DNA of 64,000 bases from contig NC_043016.1 of NCBI RefSeq assembly GCF_006345805.1, positions 4,216,001 to 4,280,000 on the forward strand. Direction: 5' to 3'. Every line of letters begins with the position of its first letter. The first letter of the stretch is position 1. Shown in pieces: positions 23,024 through 62,700 of the stretch. Below the pieces are notes generated by a model. That model saw only the letters and a list, made by a program, of their open reading frames with translations, was not told where the DNA came from and did not search any database. Both the position numbers and the translations under genes were made by a program. Source of the stretch: Octopus sinensis. Lineage: Eukaryota.

Positions 23024-25573
23024 CAGTGGTTCTTAACTTGAGTTCAATCAAACACCAGGGGTTTGTTGAGTCAGTCTCAGGGGTTTGGAAGGGTCAAGAT
23101 ACACACACACAGTACAGCCCGGTTCACACAAGCAATGTTGGGTTTTTGTCGGTCATTGAAAAATTGACTGCTGACAATTTGGCAACACAATTTTTCTTTG
23201 GCCATGTTAGATTACCAACATTCAGTTGCTTAATGAAAATCTGTTACACAAAATAAATTCCCATGATGAAATAGTTTATTAAAAGATAAATAATGATAAT
23301 AATATAAAATTTAATTTTGAAATGTTAATTCATAAATAAATGAAAAAAATTTTTAAAGCATTTTGAACACAGCCCAGGTTTATGTGTGTGTGTCCACTCT
23401 GTTCAGCCCACTCATATTATTTGTGATGTCATGCACCGCATGGCCATCACTGGCTGCAGCCGATCATGCTAAAGTCACTTGGCTTTGATATCTGTGCTGC
23501 AAGAAACTTGGTGTGTTCAGCAGCCGACTTGTGGCTGTTGTGGTTGTATGTCGTTTGTGATTTTCTTTTAATCTTTCAACCTCTTCATACTAACTATAGT
23601 CAATAAAAAAAAGAAAATGGTTGGATGAAAACATACAACATGGATTTACATGTATAAAGGAATGTGATGGGAGTCAGCATTGTTAATGCATGATATGCAA
23701 TACCAAGTTGAGCAGTTCTAGTCTAGCACCGGCAAAACTAATGGAACACTTCCTAAAGCTGCATGGAGGTGGGAAATACAAGAATACAACACTCACTGAA
23801 TTCAAGGTGAAGAGAATCAGATTCAATGGAAAGACTACTCTGCGTGCTTTTGGCTTTGTACTCATGGACAAACTGATCCTCACAACATCGTATGAAGTCG
23901 CGTACCTGATCACAAAGCAGAGCAAGCCACACACCATTGGTGAAACACTCATAAAACCAGCTGCATTGAAGATGGTGAATATCATGCTGGGAAAAGCTGC
24001 TGAAGGTCAGTTATCTCAAGTTCCTCTATCAGCAGCAGAATATAGGACATGGGTGATGACATCATGGCTCAAGTCGTTGAAGATCTGATTTCAAGCCCAG
24101 CAAAATTCAGCCTCCAACTTGACAAGACTGCTCACGTTTCCAACCTAAGCCAGCTTGTTGTATATGTGTGCTATGTGAGACATGACATGATAAAGGAAGT
24201 TTTCTATTTTGTAGGCCTCTTACAACAACAATCAAAGCAGCTGATGTGAAGAAACTCGCGGATGGCTTCTCCAGAAACAACATACTTTCATAGAATATAG
24301 TTTTTGCAGATTGTTTGGACAGAGTTCCAGCCCTGGTTTTGGAGCACTGGTGAAATCCGATGCACCACACATCATTGTTATGCACAGGCATGTGTTGATA
24401 ACCTTGCCTCCAAAACTGGCTGAAGTATTAAAAATTATAGTCGAATGTGTGACCTACATGCAAAATAGTGCTATGAAGCACCATATCTTCAAAGAGCTTT
24501 GTAATGAAATGAGTTCTGAATTCAAGGTACTTCTGTACCATTCTAACATTCGGTGGTTATCCTGGAGAATGGGGCTGAATCTTTTTTTTTTTTTGCCATG
24601 CATGTGGAATTTATCTTGTTTTTATGAGAGTACCAACATTGTCATGCAGATTGCTTTGAAAATTCCGAGTTCCTTCTCATTTTGGCGTATGTGGCTGATA
24701 TTTTTGATGCTCTCAATCATCTCAGTTGCCAGATGCTGGGCAGTGGGGTTAACATCACTGAAGTGGAAGAAAACCTGAAGGCATTTAAAAAAAACAACAA
24801 TCTACCTTTATGGAAATGACAAACAGAGGATGATAACTTCACAAACTTTCCTCTGCTGGGCAACTGTGTAAGTAAGATTGAAGACATGTCTGGAATTGGA
24901 GACTTTTCTGTACCTGGGGAGATGAACCAAGCAATTGCCATGTACTTAGATGAGCTTGCAAAGTCTCTCGACGTATACTTCCCCACCAGAGAGTCATATC
25001 CAGAATGGATGGGACAGCCGGTCACGTTTAGTGTTGCAACAGCAGATGTCAATGATAAATACCTTGACAAAATCATTGAACTTCAGCAGAGCCAGCTTCA
25101 ACAGCAACTCTTCAGAACAACAACACTCTCATCATTATGGTGTCATCAAATCATACTATACCCTCTTGAGATACTCACACCATTTGTTCCAATGAATCTT
25201 TGTGAGCAATCCTTTTCAAATATGGTAGACATGAAAACTTAGAAAAGGACAGACTTTGTTGTGAAAATGATATGAGAGTGACACTTGCGAAAGCCGTGCG
25301 ATTCTGAACTTGTAAATGAAAGGCTACAGCAAAAGTCACATTTATTTGCAGTAAATATTCATTGAGTTATGTTTTTTTGTGTGAAATTCCTGTTTTGTTG
25401 GTTTTGTTCTTTGATTTTTGTGTGCAACTGATGCATAGTTTATTTTTTGCATTAATAAAATATATACCTGTCTTTTGAAGAAATATTTTATTCTTCCAAT
25501 CAAAAAAGGGTTTGGTGAATGCACAGATGATGCTTGCAGGGTTCAGTTCTTCCAATAAGGTTAAGAACCACTG
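23024..25573 (+). mobile_element. Full-length decayed hAT (Buster/Charlie, ZBED5/SCAND3-like) DNA transposon
   Basis: 14-bp TIRs CAGTGGTTCTTAAC / GTTAAGAACCACTG and an 8-bp target-site duplication (TSD) ttaTAgat / ctaTAgat. Frameshifted transposase motifs: CMIC..L.EH..KLH, SYEVAYLI..KPHTIGETLIKPA, FSLQLD, LLYHSNIRWLS, LCEQSFS. Confidence 0.92.
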
Positions 25574-25682: not shown

Positions 25683-28418
25683 GTATATATAAAAGGCAGG
25701 ATGTGTGTGTATACGTGAATGTAGTTTATGCACGTTCACAAATTAGCACGCATGTCGCTCCAATTTTAGGAGGACATTCGTCACAATCCTAGCTGTATTT
25801 TCGTCAAATTATTTTTCCCGAGGCACTTGCTGGTAGCGGTAAAAATCGATCTTCAACCTTAACTTTAACCAATTTTGAAGTTTGCTAACATGAGTTAAGT
25901 CCCCTTCTTGCCATAGTCAAGTGAAAATGTGTGTGTATGTGTAAGGGAGAGAGAGAGAGAAGTTGTGTTGATGTATGTGTGTGTGAGGGAGAGAGAGAGT
26001 GACAGCATAAAATGTTTTTTTTCTTATAGTGTTCAAATTTAGGATGTTTTTGAAAGACACTATATTTTATAATCAGATTATATATACTTTCTCACACAGC
26101 AATTAAAATATATCTATTTTAAATCGTTCATCTTTCTCCCCCCTCTCTCTCACACACACACATTACTTTGGGTGCGAAAGAGTTTTGTTTTTATTTTATG
26201 TCAAGTAAAAAAGCATTCTGTTGATAATCCATTTATTTAACAACATAGAAACAAAGAGGTAGGTAACAATTTGTCAGTGAATTACACTACACAATATAAA
26301 TGGGTAAAATTTCCGAGGCTCCGCCTCACCCCACCCCGTTCCTCAGACCACAAAGAGGGTTTTGTAGCATATTAGGAGGCCAGGGTAGTTGATTCCACGC
26401 AAAAAATCCGATTTTTTCTTCTTAGTGAAAATTGTGCGAGTGTTATCTAAAAATTTGCCTGGGGTTTTTCATGGTAAATTTGAGATTAAAAACAAATGTT
26501 TTCCATATTCTTAATCTCCGTATTTTTTCACGTACATTAAAAAATAGATGGTGAAAAGATGAATGGGTGGTGGGGGTTAAAATTTCTGAGGCTTCCACCA
26601 CACCACACCCCGTTTTTCAAACCACAAAAAGGGTTTTGTAGCATATTAGGAGGCCAGGGTAGTTGATTCCACACAAAGAATCCAATTTTTTTTTCCTTAG
26701 TGAAAATTGTGCAAGTGTTAATCTAAAAATTTAATCTAAAACCTTTTTCCCATTCATTTCTGTTTATGAAATTATCTGTACGTAATTTTGTCTTCTCGGT
26801 GGTCAAGGCAAATGATGACTGGCAAAGCAACAGTGCCCTAATGCTGACATTGGATACAATGACCTGATCTACAATAACATGCTGATTGAAATCAAGGATG
26901 CCCTGCTCAAAATGGGTAGGGAAGCATTGAACACATTCGGTTTGCCATCCTCATTGCCACACTCCCACCAAAGTTACTTTTGGAGTTGTCATATGGTGCT
27001 GATGGCCTTGTGGAGTACCTGAGAGTAAATGAACTGAAATTGCTCCTTGATCAGAGGCTGGTGTATGAAACTGTCCTCAGTGCCATTGAAAAACAGGCGG
27101 GCGGCATTTTTTTCTTCAATGCTGCTAGAGAAACCGGCAAATCCTTTGTAACACAATTAATACTCGCTAAGATTCATCGCGAGAAACAAATTGCGCTAGC
27201 TGTTGCTTCCTCAGGAATTGCTGCTACGTTATTGCCAGGAGGTAGGACAGCGCATTCGGCATTCAAGTTGCCTTTACATTTGGTGAGGGCCAAGGTTCCT
27301 ACTGGCAACATTGGCAAAAATTCAGAGGAAGGTGAAGGTCTTAGACAGTGCCGTCTGGTTGTATGAGACGAATGCACAATGACCAATAAGGGTGCCCTTG
27401 AGGCACTGGACCAGTCACTGAAAGATATCAGGGATTCTACAGCTTCTATGGGTGGTGTAACTCTATTGCTTTCAGGAGATTTCTGGCAAACCCTTCCTGT
27501 CATCCCTAAAGGGAGCTGGGCTGATGAAGTGCGTGCATGCCTTAAGTCATCCATGTTGTGGCTCCAGGTTAAGACCTTAAGCCTAAGCACTTACTTGGTG
27601 ATAGCACGTCTGCAGTATTTGCAAAAGACATTTTAGCCCCTGCTTCACTGATGCTATCACCCTAATTTCTCCTCCTTTCTCTTTGCAAGTGTGCAACGAT
27701 TAAAATGAAAGTATTATATAAAACGAGAGAAGTGTACCTTAAAAAAAAAACAACACAGCAAACAGAAACAAATAAATACATAACGATTTACTAAAAACAC
27801 AATTTCTTCAATTAGAGTTTACCTATGATTTTTCGGTCATGGCATACAAAATTTCAATTTCACCCCCATTTCAGAAAAAATTCAAGAAAACTAAATATTT
27901 TAGCATTTCACTCTGCATATTACTCCCACTTCCTCTTTACACACATAGACACGCAAATATATAAATAAAATTGTAAGCTAACGTGTGTGTGAGTGTGTGT
28001 GTGTGCATCTGTGTGTGTGTGAGAGTGCGTGTGTGTCTGTGTGTGTGTGTGTGTGAGTGTGTGACAGGGATGAGCAAATCAAACTGGTCATCCTTTTTGC
28101 TAGATCACCTAACATCTAAAGTTATCTCTAAGTAGCAGTCGCCCAAAAGTGTATATAGACACATGTATGTATAATGTGTGTGTGTATATATTTCCATAGA
28201 GGTAACCATTCACTCCATACAAAGTTATTTAGGACAAATTGGATGAATATAAGATCTAAAGTATATCCAAGTAGCAGAAAGATCGCCCAAAAGTGTATAT
28301 AGATATTTAAATGTATTTATATATTCATCTATACACACATGTATGTATAATGTGTGTGTATATATTTCCATAGAGGTAACCATTCACTCCGCACAAAGTT
28401 TTCTAGGACGGACGAAAA
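25683..28418 (+). mobile_element. Helitron derivative with a decayed Pif1-type helicase segment (about 26820-27636)
   Basis: Motifs ETGKSF (Walker A remnant), AVASSGIAATLLPGGRTAHSAFKLP, DECTM and GGVTLLLSGDF.QTLPV. Helitron-like 5' end tatataaaaggcagg. Internal direct repeats near 26305/26578 and 28130/28268. Confidence 0.8.
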
Positions 28419-29264
28419 TCTTTATATATAAAAGAAAGGTTGTGTGTCTGTCTACTCCGATTTAGATTCCTAACTACTCCCATATTTTGCGATGCAGTTT
28501 AACCAAAACCGAGTATCTTATAGTCGTGATTCATATCGAGCCCTTCTGGGTATTAGCGCGCGTCTATGATGAGTCTACGATTTTACAAATAATTTACCAT
28601 CATTTTCTCCCATTTTAATGCATATTTTTTTAATAAAGGGAAGTAACTCTCAAACTTCACACCAATATGCGTGCTCATATGCGACGTAATATCACATCAG
28701 CAGCATTTCCTCACACCCTCCTTGCACTTGGCGAAGGCAAAATACCAGGGGATGAAAATGGTAATATTGCCATCGATTCCATTTGTACCGTTGTTAAGAT
28801 GCCTTCTGATCTCAGAGATGCAGTGTTCCAAGATCTACAAGCTAATTATCAGAATATGGATTGGATTGGCCAAAAGGCTATACTGGCCCTGAGGAATAAA
28901 ACTGTTCACCATATTATTGATGAAATGCTAAGACTCATTCCTGGGGAAGTCTATGTATATCGGTCTATCAATACAGCTCCTGACCCACAGGACGTCATCA
29001 ACTATCCAATAGAGGTACTCAATTCCTTTGAGCACCCCGGACTAACACCACACATTCTCAAACTTAAAGTTGGTGCCCCTATAATGCTCATCAGAAATTT
29101 GGTTCCCCCAAAACAATGCAATGGCACACGTTTGATCGTTAAGTCCTTATCTCTCAGCGTAAACTTATATCAATATTTGCCTGAATAATCATCATAATTC
29201 AGTGCAATCATTAACAGTACTTTCAAGCAATTCAGCCCCGAGCAACGCTGGGCAATTCTGCTAG
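28419..29264 (+). mobile_element. Helitron with a C-terminal Pif1 helicase fragment
   Basis: a|TC 5' end and 3' hairpin cccgagcaacgctggg plus CTAG|t. ORF 28667-29188 contains NMRA, LLALGEG and LKLKVGAPIMLIRNL..CNGTRLIV. Confidence 0.88.
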
Positions 29265-41166: not shown

Positions 41167-42070
41167 GTAAGTATTGTAAATATTTTCATATTTTCTACTC
41201 TTCTTATCTTTCGTGAGGCTGAAGCTTGTGTTACAAAAGTCAGAATTGCAACTCACTGAGTGAACCAGGTGAACCTGTGTTGTCCTTACTTGGTGTACTG
41301 CTTGTCACGAAGACATTTTTCTGTTTAGTGAAATAGTTCCAAAGTCATTACAATTAGGTCCCTTCTCCCCAAATTGTATTAGTAAAATTTTATTTAGGGT
41401 CTGCTGCAAACACTCATGATCCTTTAATATGAAGTGGACCAAGCAATGTTCCAGGCATTCTGGTCTATCATCCAGCTTTAGAAGGACTACTAAACTTGTT
41501 GCTTCTTTGATTGTCCTGTGTAAATTTGGGTCTTCTTATTTTTCTTTGATATAACAAGAGAGAAAGGCTTACATGTAAAGTTAGCCATCTGATAAGTAAC
41601 CTTTGTTTTGAATTGCTGAGTCTCCTCTCTCTATATAAACAAGTTTGCGTGCGCACATCGTATTTGTTTGCTTTGCCATGTATTGTCTCTCCATGTGTGT
41701 GTGTGTTTTAATAAAGCCATATTAGTGCATTTTCAAAATCCCTTACATGAAGACAGTCTCCTGACTTCATGTAAGGGATTTTGAAAGTCACCAGAGTGTT
41801 TTTAAAACTTTACTTTTCCACTCATGTTGAACATTCATGAGTTTACAATTGTTTTTTTACTGATTCTGAATCAATATCTCTTGTTCATGGACTCTCAAAG
41901 AGTTCTTTTAATGGGGAAGTACACTCTCCAATCCATGTATTCCACAAGGCATTTTTCCCCCCTCAAACAGTTCTTTATCATATAGTTTATCTAGACTCAT
42001 CAGTATACATTATTTATATTATATATTATTTACATTTGACGGATATTTGTCCTCATCTTGTTTGTTGTTA

Positions 42071-42114
42071 ACACAATATTTCGGCTGATATACCCTCCAG
42101 CCTTCATCAGGTGT
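42071..42114 (-). ncRNA. Minimal PLE-type hammerhead ribozyme
   Basis: ACAC-CUGAUGA-A-GGCUG(10 nt)CAGCC-GAAAUAUU-GUGU: stem I, stem II and a palindromic stem III. Confidence 0.7.
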
Positions 42115-42257
42115 CTTGCAGAAATTTTGAACATGGGTTCTCATTCCTAAGGTACTTTTCAATATTGTTTTTATTATTATGCCCACGGGCATATGATGTA
42201 GTGGTTGAGAGCATGGACTACTAACCCCAAGATTCCGAGTTTGATTCGAGGCAGTGA

Positions 42258-42301
<44 letters not shown>

Positions 42302-42366
42302 TAATAATAATAATAATACCAAAAAATACCTTAGGAATGAGAACCCAGGTTCGAAATTTCTCCAAG

Positions 42367-42410
42367 ACACCTGAAGAAGGCTGGAGGGTATATCAGCTGA
42401 AATATTGTGT
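42367..42410 (+). ncRNA. Minimal PLE-type hammerhead ribozyme
   Basis: ACAC-CUGAAGA-A-GGCUG..CAGCU-GAAAUAUU-GUGU. Confidence 0.65.
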
Positions 42411-44986
42411 TAACAACAAACAAGATGAGGACAAATATCCGTCAAATGTAAATAATGTACATAATTCCTCATCTCTTAAATATAGAACTATATGGTCAGT
42501 ATTCTTCACCAAATATGTTTCCTTGTTCTGAAATACATGCACACATATATATGTCATTTGGTAAAGATGAAGGAGTTGTCTATGAGTCTATCACAAACAT
42601 TCTGAGTTTGGAGAGAGTAATGTTCTTCAATAGTTGCAAGTTGAGCTTTGAAAGACATGGTCATCGAGGAGGAAATAGTGTCAGAAGGAAAGACTGGCTG
42701 TTAATGCTGGAGGGAAATATGGGAAAGGAGATGAAGAGGGAGGAGTGATTCAAGCACAACTGATTATAGATGGCAGGAAACCACCCATCTTTCAAGAACA
42801 AAGATCAGTATAGCTGGTCCTCCAACGCTCTCAGCTCGCACACAAAGATCTAGCTCTATAATAGCACAGTTCTATCTCTATGCTAGTGATACATGGCATA
42901 GCACCATGAAAATAGAGTTAGATGTTTTTCGATCAGTGATACTGGAGAGGGATTCTTAGAACATACTGGCTAGACCACATAACCAATGAAAACATTCTGA
43001 AAGAGAGCCAACACAAGATCACTTAACAAATTCATCAAGGAATGAAGCTAGCAGTTCATATAGAACTCTAAGTTCTAAGAACAGTTCAAAAGAACTCTAT
43101 TGTAAAATAGCTTTCAAATGGACACAACAGAGAGGGGAAAAGAAAGAGAGGCAAACGAAAAAGTACAAAACATTCATAGATAACATGGAGGAGGCTAATA
43201 TTGGATACAGAGAAAATTGCAAGCAACAGAAATCAGTGGCATCGGCTTGCTGCCCAATGTGCTTAAGATTACAAAAAAACTTATAATGAGCGGAGATTTT
43301 GTGACATACCACTCATGTTTAGGGTTCATAGATATATATATATGTTTTTTTTAGTTTTGATGGATAGTGTTTATGTTTGTTTTGTAAAGAAAACCAATAG
43401 ACATTTTTTTTTGACATCTGTTATTGAAGCTTGTGCAAGTTTTGCATGAGCTGTACAGATGTGCAGGATATTTTGGTGCCGAAAATCATGAGGAATGAAG
43501 AGTGGACATAGTTGGAGGTGATGACAACTATGTGCTGATCATGTGTCGTGATTGGTGCTGCCCCCCCTCCCCTAGCCAAGAGACAAAAGATGGATGGAAA
43601 CCATTGGTAGATAGTTTAACTAGATTTGTGACAGATACAATTTAGTGCAGCAACACTATGACAAAATTCTTTGCAAGAGAGAGTCACTGGTGGATGCCAT
43701 GGGAAAGCAGATCTCCATCAGATCTAGCTTTATTAAAATCATAAAGGTGGTTATAAAAGGAGGCAGATTGAAAATGATATACTAAGTTGTTATTAACAGC
43801 TACTTAATGGCTGCCTCCATCAACTTAAAGTGATGGAACTGAGTGCAATAGAATGGTAGTTTGCATGATCAAAGGGGTTTCTGCTCTTGCAAGTGAAATT
43901 CATTGTAGTATGTTTCCAAAAACTGTGATATATCCCTGGTTAGAGAGGAGAGTCTGGTGAAGAAAAAGGCTATGCCTCTTTCAATTGCTCGTTTGTCTGA
44001 AAGCAATGGAAGTAATATTACCAGGGCCACTATCCTTGCTGGTATGAGGCAGTTGAGCCTAGAATAAAGCACCTGTGTTGCTACACAGTCTTAGCATAGT
44101 TCTAGTGGAGCTCAAACCAGTCAGGTTAGTTAAAGGATGGCTGGAGCTGAGGTGGCACATTGCATATACAGTTTTACAGTGGGAAATTATTTTTAAAGTT
44201 GTGGATGGTATGATATTTAAAAGTGAAGCTGTTTGGATTGTTGATCTGAGTGTCAGTTCAAGATGTATGAAAATGAAACTAATTGCTGTAGAAAGTTGAG
44301 GATTAAGAAAGATTTCATTATTTTCTATATCACCCACATGGAATAAAAGTAACAGTGATGAAGAGTTGTGTGTATAGAAGCAACTGATGGCTTACATAAG
44401 GTATGTATCCTTAATGCAGGAAGTAATAAGGTCATAGATGTTGTTGATGATTCAAGGATTTCTGAGAGTAATACAGGAATGGTAGAGGGAGAATTTTAAC
44501 CGAAATAAATAGTTCTTGATGCTGATATTCAATGGGAGAAATGAGTGTCATGGCAAGTGGATCTGTTGGTATACAGACATTATGTTTGAGGATAGAATGT
44601 AACCATGACAGTTGAGATGGACTGCTGATTGGAGTTGATAGATTTGTGTCTTGGCATGGAGTATGATTTGCATGTTACTAAGAGGGATGGGCTTTAGGCT
44701 TGATAATCGATAGCTCTAAAAGAAACATTAATGTGTACAGAACACCTCATAACCAATGCCCTAGAAATAAAGCACCACCCCAAAAGCAGCTGCAGAATAT
44801 GCTCACCCAACAGCAATTTCTTACTGAAGTGACACAAGCATAAAACCACTGTAAAATCAGCAGATGGTATTGAGAAAACATTCATAGTTTTAGCTGAAAA
44901 TATTTTTCAGTTCTAGTCTATAAAACACATAAATTCCTTCTTTGAAATTTAATGACAAAAATGAACATTACATTGCTGTCTGTGTA

Positions 44987-53320: not shown

Positions 53321-55446
53321 TGGCAATCCCTCAAGGTCGAGGATGATGGTCTTTGCGCAAATTTACTGGTGAGTCCGTAGGTGACCGATAGGACCAATTC
53401 TTGCTTGAAAAGATCGGTCGCAATGCGGACATCTAGTGCCGGAAGAGAGAGTTGCACATAGTTGTTGTTGGGGCTCCTTCCGTCGTCGTCTTTTCTCCTC
53501 CAGCTTTGCAGACCTTTTCGACTCGAAAGTCGCCGTTCCCTCATGGATGGTGGTTTTCCAGAGTGGTCTGTTTTTTGCCGTTTCCTCCTAGTTAGTGAAG
53601 TCGATGTCACACTTTTTGAGGTTCGTTTTCAGGGTGTCCTTGTAGCGTTTCTTCTGGCCTCCTTTTGTACACTTGCCGTCTTTGAGTTGGGAGTAGAAGA
53701 TCTGTTTGGAAAGTCATTCATCAGTCATTCTAACCACGTGGCTGCTCCATCTTAGTTGGCCTTTGATGACATAGGCTTCGATGCTGGTCATTTTTGCTTC
53801 TTGTAGCACGTTGATGTTAGTTCTTCTGCCTTCCCAGCTAATGTTAAGGATCTTCCGAAGACAGCGTTGGTGAAATTTCTCAAGCGTTTTCAGGTGGTGA
53901 CTATATGGGGCCCAGGTTTCGGATGCTTAAAGGAGGGTTGGAATAATGACTGCCCTGTACACCATGAGTTTGGTTTCGGTTCGGATGTCCCGATCAGCAA
54001 AAACTCTTGTTCGAAGCTTGCCGAAAGCTGTTCCTGCACACTTCAGACGGTGTTGGATTTCATCGCTGAGGTCTACCTTTGCTGACAGATGGCTCCCAAG
54101 GTAGCAGAAATGGTTCACATTTTCCAGTGGAATTCCTTTGAGTTGAATCGATGGCGGGTTGTCAACACGGGCATTGGGAGGAGGTTGGTAGAGTAAGTGA
54201 GTCTTCTTGATGTTGATGCTCAGTCCAAGTTTAGTATATGCATGATGAAAAGCATTTAGGATCTGTTGGAGGTGATCCTCTCTGTAAGCTGCTACACTGT
54301 TGTCGTTGGCATATTGGAACTCTAGCAAGCTTCGCGCCATTGTCTTTGACGTACTTTTGAGGCGAGCAAGGTTGGAAAGCTTGCCGTCCATTCTGTACGA
54401 GATCTCGATGCCAGGTGGAAGGTCATCTCGTATGATGTACAACATCTCGTATGATGTAAAGAGAGTTGGCGCTATCATGCAGCCTTGCTTCACTCCGGAA
54501 GTGACTTTAAAGGGCTCAGAACTGCCTCCGTTGGTCTGGACTCTGGTGTGCATATTGTCGTGGAGGAGTTTGAGGATCCGGATGAACTTATCTGGGCATC
54601 CATACTGGGCGAGAATATCCCAGAGGAGTTCTCGCGAGACACGGTCAAAGGCTTTGGATAGGTCAATAAAGGCCAAATAGAGCAGTTGGTGTTGCTCACG
54701 ACATTTTTCTTGTAGATGTCGCAGCGTGAAGATCATGTCGGTTGTGCTTCGTGATGGCCTAAAGCCGGTCTGCGTCTTGGGAAGGATCCTCTCTGACAGC
54801 GTTTTGAGACGGTTGTTCAGGATGTGTGCAAGAATCTTCCCAGCAGTTGCTAATAAGGAAATACCCCGGTAATTTCCACACTCAGAACGATCGCCCTTTC
54901 GTTTGTAAATGGTAATGATGTTAGCATCCCTGAAGTTGATGGTACAACTTCATTTGTCCAGATTTTGACCAAGAGTTGGTGGAGCTGGTGTTGGACAAAA
55001 TCACCTCCCAGTTTGTAGATCTCAGCTGGGATTCCATCAGGACCCGTGGCTTTGTTGTTCTTCATTGCTGTGATAGCAATTTTGACCTCTTCGAGGGATG
55101 GAATTCGAGCGAGAGAGTAATCTTTGGCCTTTTTAGGAATCAAGTCAAGTATGCTTTTGTCGATGGTAGCCTTGTGATTGAGGAGGTCATCGAAGTGTTC
55201 TCTCCATCTGTCTCCTATTTCGGTGTTGCTTTTCAGGATGGTCGCTCCATCTTTACTCTTCAGAGGAGCCTGTCCATGTGTGGAAGGTCAGTATATTTCT
55301 TTCGTGGCTTTGAAGAAACCTCTGGTGTCGTTTACATCTGCTAGCTGCTGGATTTCACGAGATTTGTGTCTCCACCACTGGTTCTTCAGGGTGCAGGTTG
55401 TCCTTTGAACTGCAGCTTTGCAACACATCTTGCTGGTCTCGGGATC
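53321..55446 (-). mobile_element. Young 5'-truncated RTE (BovB-like) LINE
   Basis: Motifs GPDGIPAE, GFRPSRSTTDMIF, FIDLSKAFD, GVKQGC, QYAND and YLGS, with a C-terminal CPHC..HLRTH finger. 9-bp TSD tcacgatga at 53312-53320 and 55447-55455. Visibly more GC-rich than its flanks. Confidence 0.92.
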
Positions 55447-57388: not shown

Positions 57389-58672
57389 TCTCCCCCATAT
57401 CAATTTGTCTGGCCAGTCCTTCAAATTTTGTCCTTTTTTTTTTATTTCCATGTCTTACATAATCACTGCCATGAGAATCTATTGTCGTTTTAGTCGTCTT
57501 TAACATTTTCGTCTTCAATATCTATATAATGGTAATTCTGTTTGCAGCGGCCCCTGCATTGTTGTTGTTAGAATTTTCTTTTGGAGTGCTCGTTCTTGTT
57601 GCAATGTATTCATACATTACTGAGTTCTGATGCCTTGCAAGCCCGTTCGATTAAAACCAGCAACATCTTCCAACTTACTTTGCTTGTTGCTGTTATTGAT
57701 AGATTGGTTTAACTTTGTTTTTATCTCCCTATAATTAGTAAAACAAAGCAATCGCATTGCAGTAGGTTCACTAATATAATCATGGTCCTTTCATTGCAAA
57801 ATTAACTTGGCACCATGTTTTAGTAATGTTAGAAATGGTGCAGTACTGAACCTTGTTCTGAGATGAAATTTCCCAAGATAAAATTCTCCAGATAGCTTCC
57901 TAAAGCCAAAATGTACTGCAATTTATTGCAGCTACTACTCTCTCTAATTTTGTGACCTTTGTTGTCGTTATTGTTGTTGTTGTTATAAATATTTTTATTT
58001 TTATTTTACTATTAATATTACTATTATTATTATCATTAATATTATTATTATATTGCTATTATTAATATTATTATTATCAATATTATTTTTATTATTTTAT
58101 CATTATTATTATTATTACTATTAGTAGTAGTAGTAGTATTCATTGTTTAACACCTGCTTTCCATGCTAGCATGGGTTGGACGATTTGACTGAGGCCTGGC
58201 AAACTAGATGGCTGCACCAGACTCCAGTCTGACCTGGTAGAGTTTCTACAGCTGGATGCCCTTCCTAATGCCAACCACTCTGAGAGTGTATTATTATTAT
58301 TGTAGTGTTGTATTAATATTATTATTATTATTACTATTATTATTATTATTATTATTAACGTATATTGAACAAAATAGTTTGCCACATTTTTTACCAGCTC
58401 TTTATGTTCTGAGTTCAAATTCCACTTTGGCTTTCATCCCTTTGGGGGTCAATAAAATGAGCCCCAGCTGATCGTTGGGATTGATGTAATCAAGTAACCC
58501 CATTCCCACCAAAATTTGAGGCCGTGTGCCTGTGCAAGAAAGAATTCTTCTTTTTATCATCGTCAACCTTGTGCCAACATTTGAAACCCTTATTATTATC
58601 ATTGTTATGGTTTTGAAATTTCCATGCTTTACTTTTTCATACATTTTACATTCCATTTTTCTTTTTTTGAAG

Positions 58673-58755
58673 AGCCTCGTTCTGGATTTAGAATCGCTTT
58701 CAATATGTTTGATGCTGATGGCAATCAAATTGTTGACAAAAGAGAATTTCTGGTT
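58673..58755 (+). CDS. MICU3: Internal exon (83 nt) of MICU3 encoding an EF-hand
   Basis: Polypyrimidine tract plus gaAG| acceptor and |GTaagt donor. Translates to (K)PRSGFRIAFNMFDADGNQIVDKREFLV, with a canonical EF-hand loop DADGNQIVDKRE. Matches recalled MICU3 KPHAGFRIAFNMFDTDGNEMVDKKEFLV. Confidence 0.93.
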
Positions 58756-61867: not shown

Positions 61868-62700
61868 AAACTATAGCATCTTGAGAGATGAGGAATTATT
61901 TACATTTGATGGATATTTGTCCTCAAATCTAGGTTCTCATTCCTTAGGTACTTTTCAGATGTTATTGTTGTTGTTATTATTCAGGTTACTGCCTGGAATC
62001 GAACTCAGTACCTTGAGGTTAGTAGCCAGCTCTCTTAACCACTAAACCATATGGCAGTTATGGAGTGAGTTTTAGGGCTTATAAATCTAATATTTTCCTA
62101 CTGTTCCTTAATACCGGTTTTCCATATGCTACTCATATGTACACTCGGTCCGCTTAGGAGGTTGTTGTGTCCTAGCATATTTGCTACTGCTTCTTCTAGT
62201 TTTTGTATTTTCCAGTGGTGTTCTCTATCTATTATTTTAACTTCATCCCACAGGGGGATCATGTATGGAAAAGGAGAGACCACCTCCCCCTGTGGGATGA
62301 CGTTAAAATAATAGACAGAGAACGCCACAGGAAAATACGAAAACTAAAAGAAGCTGCACATATGCTAGGACACAACAACCTCCTAAGCAGACCAAGTGCA
62401 GATATGAGCAGCATATGGGAACCAGTATTAAGGAAAATAGTAGATTTATAAGCCCTAAAATTCACTCCATAATTGCCCATAGGCATTTGGCATAGTGGTT
62501 AAGAGTGCAGGCTACTAACCCGAAGATTCTGAGTTTGATTCCAGGCAGTGATCTGAATAATAATAATATTAGAAAAATACTTTAGGAATCGGAACCCAGG
62601 TTCAAAATTCCCCCAGGATACCTGATGAAGGCTGGAGAGTACATCAGTTGAAAAGTTGTGTTAACAACAAACAAGATGAGGACAAATATCCGTCAAATAT
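61868..62700. mobile_element. Penelope-like retroelement 3' ends in inverted arrangement (GIY-YIG C-terminus plus terminal repeat)
   Basis: Both strands encode PLWD.VKIIDRE.H.KI.KL.EA..MLG.NNLLS.PS..MSSIW, typical of the end of a Penelope GIY-YIG ORF. Inversion point near 62257. Both arms continue into a tRNA-like module, and the + arm ends in a hammerhead. Confidence 0.85.
62618..62661 (+). ncRNA. PLE-type hammerhead ribozyme (slightly decayed)
   Basis: AUAC-CUGAUGA-A-GGCUG..CAGUU-GAAAAGUU-GUGU. Confidence 0.55.

Follow-up and report, generated by a model that had tools for sequence, protein, structure and literature searches.

A tRNA-derived head in the terminal repeat of an octopus Penelope-like retroelement is a candidate internal Pol III promoter

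In the genome of Octopus sinensis, a segment resembling a tRNA lies directly after the stop codon of a Penelope-type endonuclease frame, which raises the question of what the boxes of a Pol III promoter are doing at the end of an element that encodes its own proteins. Such promoters are typical of SINEs and other parasites that encode no protein; autonomous retrotransposons, to our knowledge, are considered to depend on Pol II or, in the case of R2, on read-through by Pol I. An earlier note on this DNA (the window, a stretch of 64,000 nucleotides) had described a tRNA-like module, an (AAT)n tract and a hammerhead ribozyme following the endonuclease stop in this order, and had proposed that the module is native to the family and that an internal Pol III promoter, together with ribozyme processing, makes short mobile RNAs. 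The boxes, the tract and the hammerhead were all found (Table 1).

Table 1. Parts of the inverted arms in the window; offsets are counted from the A-box T
Feature	Positions	Strand	Remarks
C-terminal end of the Penelope-like element (PLE) ORF, 5'-truncated, with GIY-YIG endonuclease region and stop	62257-62451	+	From the translation
Short palindrome, family form TGCCC-AC/AT-GGGCA	62474-62485	+	5' side at -14
tRNA-derived head	62488-62556	+	A box 62488-62498, TGGCATAGTGG; B box 62531-62542, GAGTTTGATTCC; cloverleaf decayed
(AAT)n tract	62557-62572	+	Length varies; arms often break here
Minimal type-I hammerhead	62617-62662	+	Core CTGATGA...GAAA; cleavage predicted after 62657; damage in stem III
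3' end of plus arm	62663-62698	+	Close to the proximal one of the family's two 3' ends; in long copies, equals the first codons of the ORF
Inverted arm	61881-62260	-	Endonuclease end, tRNA-derived head, AAT tract; hammerhead deleted
Boxes of the inverted arm	A box 62039-62049; B box 61995-62006	-	tRNA-derived head; A box TGGTTTAGTGG, B box GAGTTCGATTCC
Head-start short copy	42180-42489	+	Starts exactly at -14 (A-box T at 42194); hammerhead 42366-42411; finishes at the distal family 3' end
Inverted partner of the 42180 copy	42030-42179	-	Starts in the AAT tract; undamaged hammerhead core at 42070-42115

The plus arm holds the last 64 codons of the ORF, with a frame that ends in ...WEPVLRKIVDL and a TAA at 62449-62451, and these 64 residues are 53% identical to the C-terminus of P0001, an 847-aa RT protein. 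The same module had been reported on the opposite arm, where both boxes are indeed present but the hammerhead is deleted, and in a third copy, which we recovered as a plus arm with an inverted partner on its left. By pairwise similarity, the loci in the window are truncated, inverted end-pieces of an abundant protein-coding retroelement of the Penelope/Poseidon type.

The element is about 2.9 kb long. The family majority sequence, built from 21 long copies, has 2,927 nt and a single frame of 835 codons, and the unit is ordered as head, (AAT)n, hammerhead, RT/endonuclease ORF, head, (AAT)n and hammerhead. In the majority sequence the AUG of the ORF is located about 107 nt after the A box and upstream of the hammerhead, which places the hammerhead inside the reading frame. 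A natural copy of the element shows 42% identity with an Anolis protein across 398 aa, and the closest protein is P0001 (54% identity), in which RVT_1 is present; a direct Pfam match to GIY-YIG was obtained on P0001 only and was sub-threshold (E 0.23). RVT_1 was also matched in the natural copy (Pfam), and the homologs bear PF00078/PF28514/PF26215, with PF01541 in some of them. On pairwise similarity and four structural features, this is an EN+ Penelope-like element of the Penelope/Poseidon type: it has a single ORF with RT and, at the C-terminus, a GIY-YIG endonuclease; pseudo-LTRs arising from partial tandems, with inverted truncated arms; an optional tail of 30-40 bp, with 82 of 198 arms ending in one cluster and 96 in a second one about 28 nt away; and a minimal type-I hammerhead in the pseudo-LTR, with the architecture described in PMC4209133. 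In residues 1-70 of P0001, at the N-terminus, a hammerhead-shaped peptide is kept in frame with the ORF, with in-frame indels relative to the octopus family.

The head is fixed in this element. We scored 150 genomic matches to the C-terminal (endonuclease) end of the ORF; among 30 loci found by the endonuclease-end peptide alone, 28 had the head, complete or in part, immediately behind the stop (27 with a score of at least 50 and one with an internal deletion; one of the 28 is the window itself), and the remaining two ended at the first bases of the head. The module is thus native to the family and no chance SINE insertion, as had been proposed. Chance is also ruled out by the thousands of genomic copies, against zero matches for reversed-pattern controls. 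From the 14 loci in a blind 1.2-Mb sample of the 2.72-Gb assembly, about 32,000 loci can be extrapolated genome-wide (Poisson range about 17,000-53,000). To the question whether RT-bearing copies carry the module, the answer is that long copies have it on the 3' side and some have it upstream of the ORF as well. This upstream repeat was overlooked in the earlier note, and it means that the promoter would serve the coding RNA. About nine independent cases have a repeat directly upstream of the ORF: two begin at the head (L283, L291), two extend beyond it (L290, L313) and five begin downstream. RNA reads of another species contain the same spacer-head junction. One long copy was found four times together with its flanks (L274-L277), at about 98% identity and on different contigs, by duplication or assembly redundancy.

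Only the A and B boxes survive of the tRNA features: the family-majority boxes fit the general A/B-box consensus while the stems have decayed. Detection of the two modules by program, as envisaged earlier, did not succeed; at the locus no tRNA was called by ARAGORN or by Rfam (RF00005), the cloverleaf was not predicted, and the Rfam search called no hammerhead. A functional or suppressor tRNA was rejected, the cloverleaf being undetectable by ARAGORN or RF00005, and so was RNase P-type cutting at tRNA +1, given that the acceptor stem is lost and the copy edge lies at -14, not -7. When compared with 20 distinct genomic tRNA sequences, the head was most similar to Arg(TCT), with a score of 48 and a shuffle maximum of 25-27; one Ile(AAT) gene scored 44, nearly as good. 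A pattern search for Ser(GCT), the tRNA that the segment resembles according to the earlier note, gave no match, so that this tRNA is absent from the compared set and a Ser(GCT) origin is not established. Among 80 related PLE loci, many on short contigs, the box pattern beside the ORF end matched in two, neither of them a head (the match at L369 looks spurious), and ARAGORN found none in 58 of these loci, again with many short contigs. The other match, at L348:2513-2580, is a tRNA-like insert above the Rfam cut-off, about 490 nt upstream of a PLE fragment.

The copies of the repeat have a sharp 5' edge. Exact 20-mer counts over the genome, which tally arms and in which every word decays independently, were 753 at -126, 834 at -30, 4,938 at +22, 7,366 at +100 and 12,110 at about +190 from the A-box T. 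The step at the head is therefore 5.9-fold over 52 nt, compared with 1.1-, 1.5- and 1.6-fold over 78-96 nt elsewhere. A similar picture came from individual arms. The first 30 matches along C1, a sample in which one pair is a duplicate and one locus contributes two arms, included 23 that start between -14 and +13, none between -15 and -68, and seven that extend to the ORF. Of the 14 loci in the blind sample, five start between -7 and -15, one at +6 and four at +60 to +77, four are in or reach the ORF, and no start was observed between -16 and -311. The ORF was reached by two of 30 hammerhead-anchored and two of 30 head-anchored loci. We infer that the 5' side of the palindrome, at -14, is the hard upstream edge of the head-start copies and the putative RNA start.

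The anole element PAc (Poseidon_Ac of Anolis carolinensis) offers a guide to how such copies might arise. Its RT has two start sites inside the first ORF codons and needs ORF sequence beyond them; it copies to the 5' end of the RNA and nicks at ATT, and hammerhead cleavage is dispensable in vitro (PMC11167929). In the octopus element, the head of any copy would let TFIIIC/TFIIIB initiate an RNA. The RT would then start at two sites within the first ORF codons (the 'tail'), as that of PAc does in vitro, read the RNA back across the hammerhead and run off at its 5' end, giving head-start copies of about 270 nt that would often be folded back into an inverted arm. Copies that pass the head into the endonuclease end, such as the 62257 locus, would come from RNA reading through the whole ORF into the next repeat. 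Many arms start or end in the (AAT)n tract or sit in AAT microsatellites (L165, L211, L105, L316), which fits the ATT nicking preference of PAc, and the tract may act as a self-target.

Because a start of the RNA at the head is probable, and Pol III is a probable polymerase given that start, we regard the head, on balance, as a likely internal Pol III promoter, from which the RNA would begin some 13-14 nt ahead of the A box. Rather than an independent SINE, the short copies probably represent run-offs of reverse transcription; if they run off RNA started at the head, that RNA would continue into the ORF and the step would mark its 5' end. The small number of independent upstream repeats that begin at the head counts against this. 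A bolder version makes the whole 2.9-kb coding element a Pol III unit. Its RT/endonuclease message of 835 codons, free of terminators, would be driven by a captured tRNA promoter, and translation would begin, with no Pol II cap, at the AUG upstream of the hammerhead; we put this forward tentatively and find it somewhat doubtful. Pol III RNA is uncapped, which counts against a coding Pol III unit. The processivity of Pol III has also been argued to restrict such elements to short, non-coding ones (PMC10886601), and the pseudo-LTRs of known PLEs contain an intron and an internal promoter of the LINE type (PMC8557442, PMC2377424).

Four or more T form a Pol III terminator (PMC3141230), and the absence of TTTT had been set as the expectation for a Pol III unit before any counting. 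The sense strand of the 2,927-nt majority sequence contains no TTTT, together with 32 A4, nine C4 and no G4 runs. The natural copies hold 21 TTTT in 40.0 kb, and seven of 21 copies have none. In the ORF, 2.9 TTTT are expected by synonymous shuffle (P 0.026), 3.7 by pyrimidine resampling (P 0.012) and 5.2 by base shuffling (P 0.003); the equally absent GGGG has a P of 0.30 under the synonymous shuffle. Related PLE ORFs, taken from the 58 of 80 PLE loci with frames of at least 350 aa, are not depleted (528 observed and 480 expected TTTT, one of 58 free of them). L346:2812-4955 is a TTTT-free ORF of 2.1 kb from a 48%-identical relative that has no head and a T-rich 3' region, which indicates that a Pol III promoter is not needed for the trait to arise. 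No usable copy of a second PLE family was found in the octopus genome as an internal TTTT control. In the stretch from the stop to 90 nt past the hammerhead, TTTT is present in 20 of 21 relatives, and the octopus family has none. The depletion of TTTT is real but modest.

The same results bear on the reading that the head is the RNA start but that the RNA is made by Pol II, the tRNA piece being a relic of an old SINE or tRNA insertion that adjoins, or became, an ordinary internal PLE promoter. All characterised PLE promoters lie within the pseudo-LTR (PMC2377424, PMC8557442), a capped RNA would solve the problem of translation, and the step in copy ends is silent on the polymerase. This reading nevertheless leaves out why both boxes were kept when the stems were lost, and why the edge lies before the A box at a distance like that between a Pol III start and its A box. 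It also has against it that T-rich stretches, present in the relatives, are missing from the repeat and that no GT..AG spliced joint occurs among the 15 of 102 RNA-read joints listed. We consider it unlikely.

Alternatively, the step could be an artefact of reverse transcription, with the cDNA on a long read-through RNA folding back at TGCCC..GGGCA and the head a passive passenger. The copy edge coincides with this palindrome, which is the strongest 24-nt hairpin within a 704-nt region, and many head-start copies have an inverted arm beginning at it, so that stopping by fold-back is a live alternative to a Pol III start. However, hammerhead stem II, of similar stability (-8.4 versus -9.1 kcal/mol for the palindrome), is spanned by the step of merely 1.6-fold; a long inverted partner is missing from seven of the 23 head-start arms in the C1 sample, and several of the inverted partners present are joined from other positions. 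Since it also leaves both the intact boxes and the absence of TTTT unexplained, this explanation seems to us rather improbable.

A third possibility is a separate SINE family: the head-start copies would then descend from master copies of their own and depend on the PLE for mobilisation in trans. About five-sixths of the arms holding the middle of the head lack the upstream sequence, and the head-start copies have the layout of a SINE; as in a tRNA-derived SINE, a head with A and B boxes forms their 5' end. However, no independent non-autonomous lineage emerged: the head belongs to the coding element, variants are common to head-start and ORF-linked arms (divergence 0.052 versus 0.060), no private marker appeared among those tested (in a pooled sample biased by the queries), and the head was never seen on another body in the sampled loci. 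PAc, moreover, depends on ORF sequence past the sites where the RT starts (PMC11167929), and the short copies do not contain such sequence. A separate SINE is thus very unlikely.

The hammerhead bears on the remaining claim of the earlier note, that ribozyme processing is the source of short mobile RNAs. In 109 cores of this putative ribozyme, stem I is GACAC/GTGTT and stem III is palindromic; the commonest form, GAAACGTT, accounts for 32 cores, the rest are mostly CpG-decay variants, and the plus-arm copy is damaged in stem III (GAAAAGTT). The idea that the hammerhead cuts Pol III transcripts and so releases short mobile RNAs, perhaps circular ones, in the manner of schistosome alpha elements or retrozymes, is favoured by the order of Pol III boxes and type-I hammerhead and by the predicted co-folding of two copies via the palindromic stem III, yet it is scarcely credible given that copies start at the head and not at the cut, run about 50-85 nt beyond the cut site to the two 3' ends, and, in the samples studied, are dispersed or inverted with no cleavage-bounded head-to-tail arrays. 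Three raw unstranded RNA-seq runs from another species gave equal depth on both strands and no pile-up of starts or ends, and anole PAc inserts in vitro without hammerhead cleavage (PMC11167929). The lack of a pile-up of starts counts against a Pol III start at the head as well, although reads from both strands alike do not distinguish between polymerases. Of the earlier proposal, an RNA start at the head is supported, as it agrees with the sharp 5' edge shown by the copies; the ribozyme part is not, and the template RNA is probably left uncut by the hammerhead.

The octopus element resembles several known systems in part. With PAc it shares a single ORF for RT and a C-terminal endonuclease, a pseudo-LTR on either side, truncated arms in inverted orientation, a pair of 3' ends separated by about 30 nt and a hammerhead that overlaps the ORF start region (PMC11167929). 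Unlike PAc, it has a tRNA-derived head with A and B boxes and a sharp copy edge there, no intron was seen, and its sense strand is TTTT-free. Penelope of D. virilis and Chlamys-3 likewise have a start site and an internal promoter in the pseudo-LTR (PMC2377424; PMC8557442), but their promoter is LINE-like and overlaps a spliceosomal intron, whereas the octopus start would coincide with tRNA-type boxes. The TRIMp3 elements (Cassandra, Helenus, Ajax) also carry a Pol III promoter derived from a small RNA in their terminal repeat, with the tRNA fold lost; they are, however, non-coding LTR elements of less than 1.3 kb, for whose autonomous partners the author expects Pol II, and the octopus element is a PLE encoding its own RT and endonuclease (PMC10886601). 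In the schistosome Sm-alpha/Sj-alpha elements a Pol III promoter is followed by a type-I hammerhead, but these are non-coding, often tandem and freed by cleavage, whereas the octopus module is the terminal repeat of a coding element with copies that are not bounded by the cut site (review PMC6765202). Animal non-LTR retrozymes are short hammerhead repeats related to PLE pseudo-LTRs and are defined as tandem arrays, unlike the octopus copies (bioRxiv 10.64898/2026.07.22.740005; PMC7761336); in the accessible text of the first of these sources, the words 'tRNA', 'Pol III' and 'promoter' do not occur. For Octopus vulgaris, Penelope and many unclassified SINE families have been reported, in an accessible text from which the word 'ribozyme' is absent (PMC13282606). 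No prior description of a tRNA-headed coding PLE was found in the literature; Repbase/Dfam, subscription papers and supplements, which lay outside this scope, may hold the family.

If the reading as a Pol III unit is true, this would be an autonomous retrotransposon on a SINE promoter and a natural Pol III protein-coding unit over 2.9 kb free of TTTT, in which uncapped translation and the role of the PLE hammerhead, in frame and downstream of the first AUG, become directly testable. The weaker reading also matters, since a PLE would then scatter tens of thousands of SINE-looking, tRNA-headed fragments that would likely be annotated as SINEs.

Other features of the window were noted. An EF-hand exon at 58672-58755 (+) has its best PDB matches in MICU3/MICU2, and the 62-kb locus therefore probably lies within an intron of that gene. 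Broken non-LTR RT frames at 53927-55287 (-), presumably RTE-like, contain three TTTT runs in 1,361 nt. The ORF list also includes decayed helicase frames at 26920-29188 (+) and decayed transposase frames at 23687-25242 (+), which we take to be Helitron-like and hAT-like, respectively.
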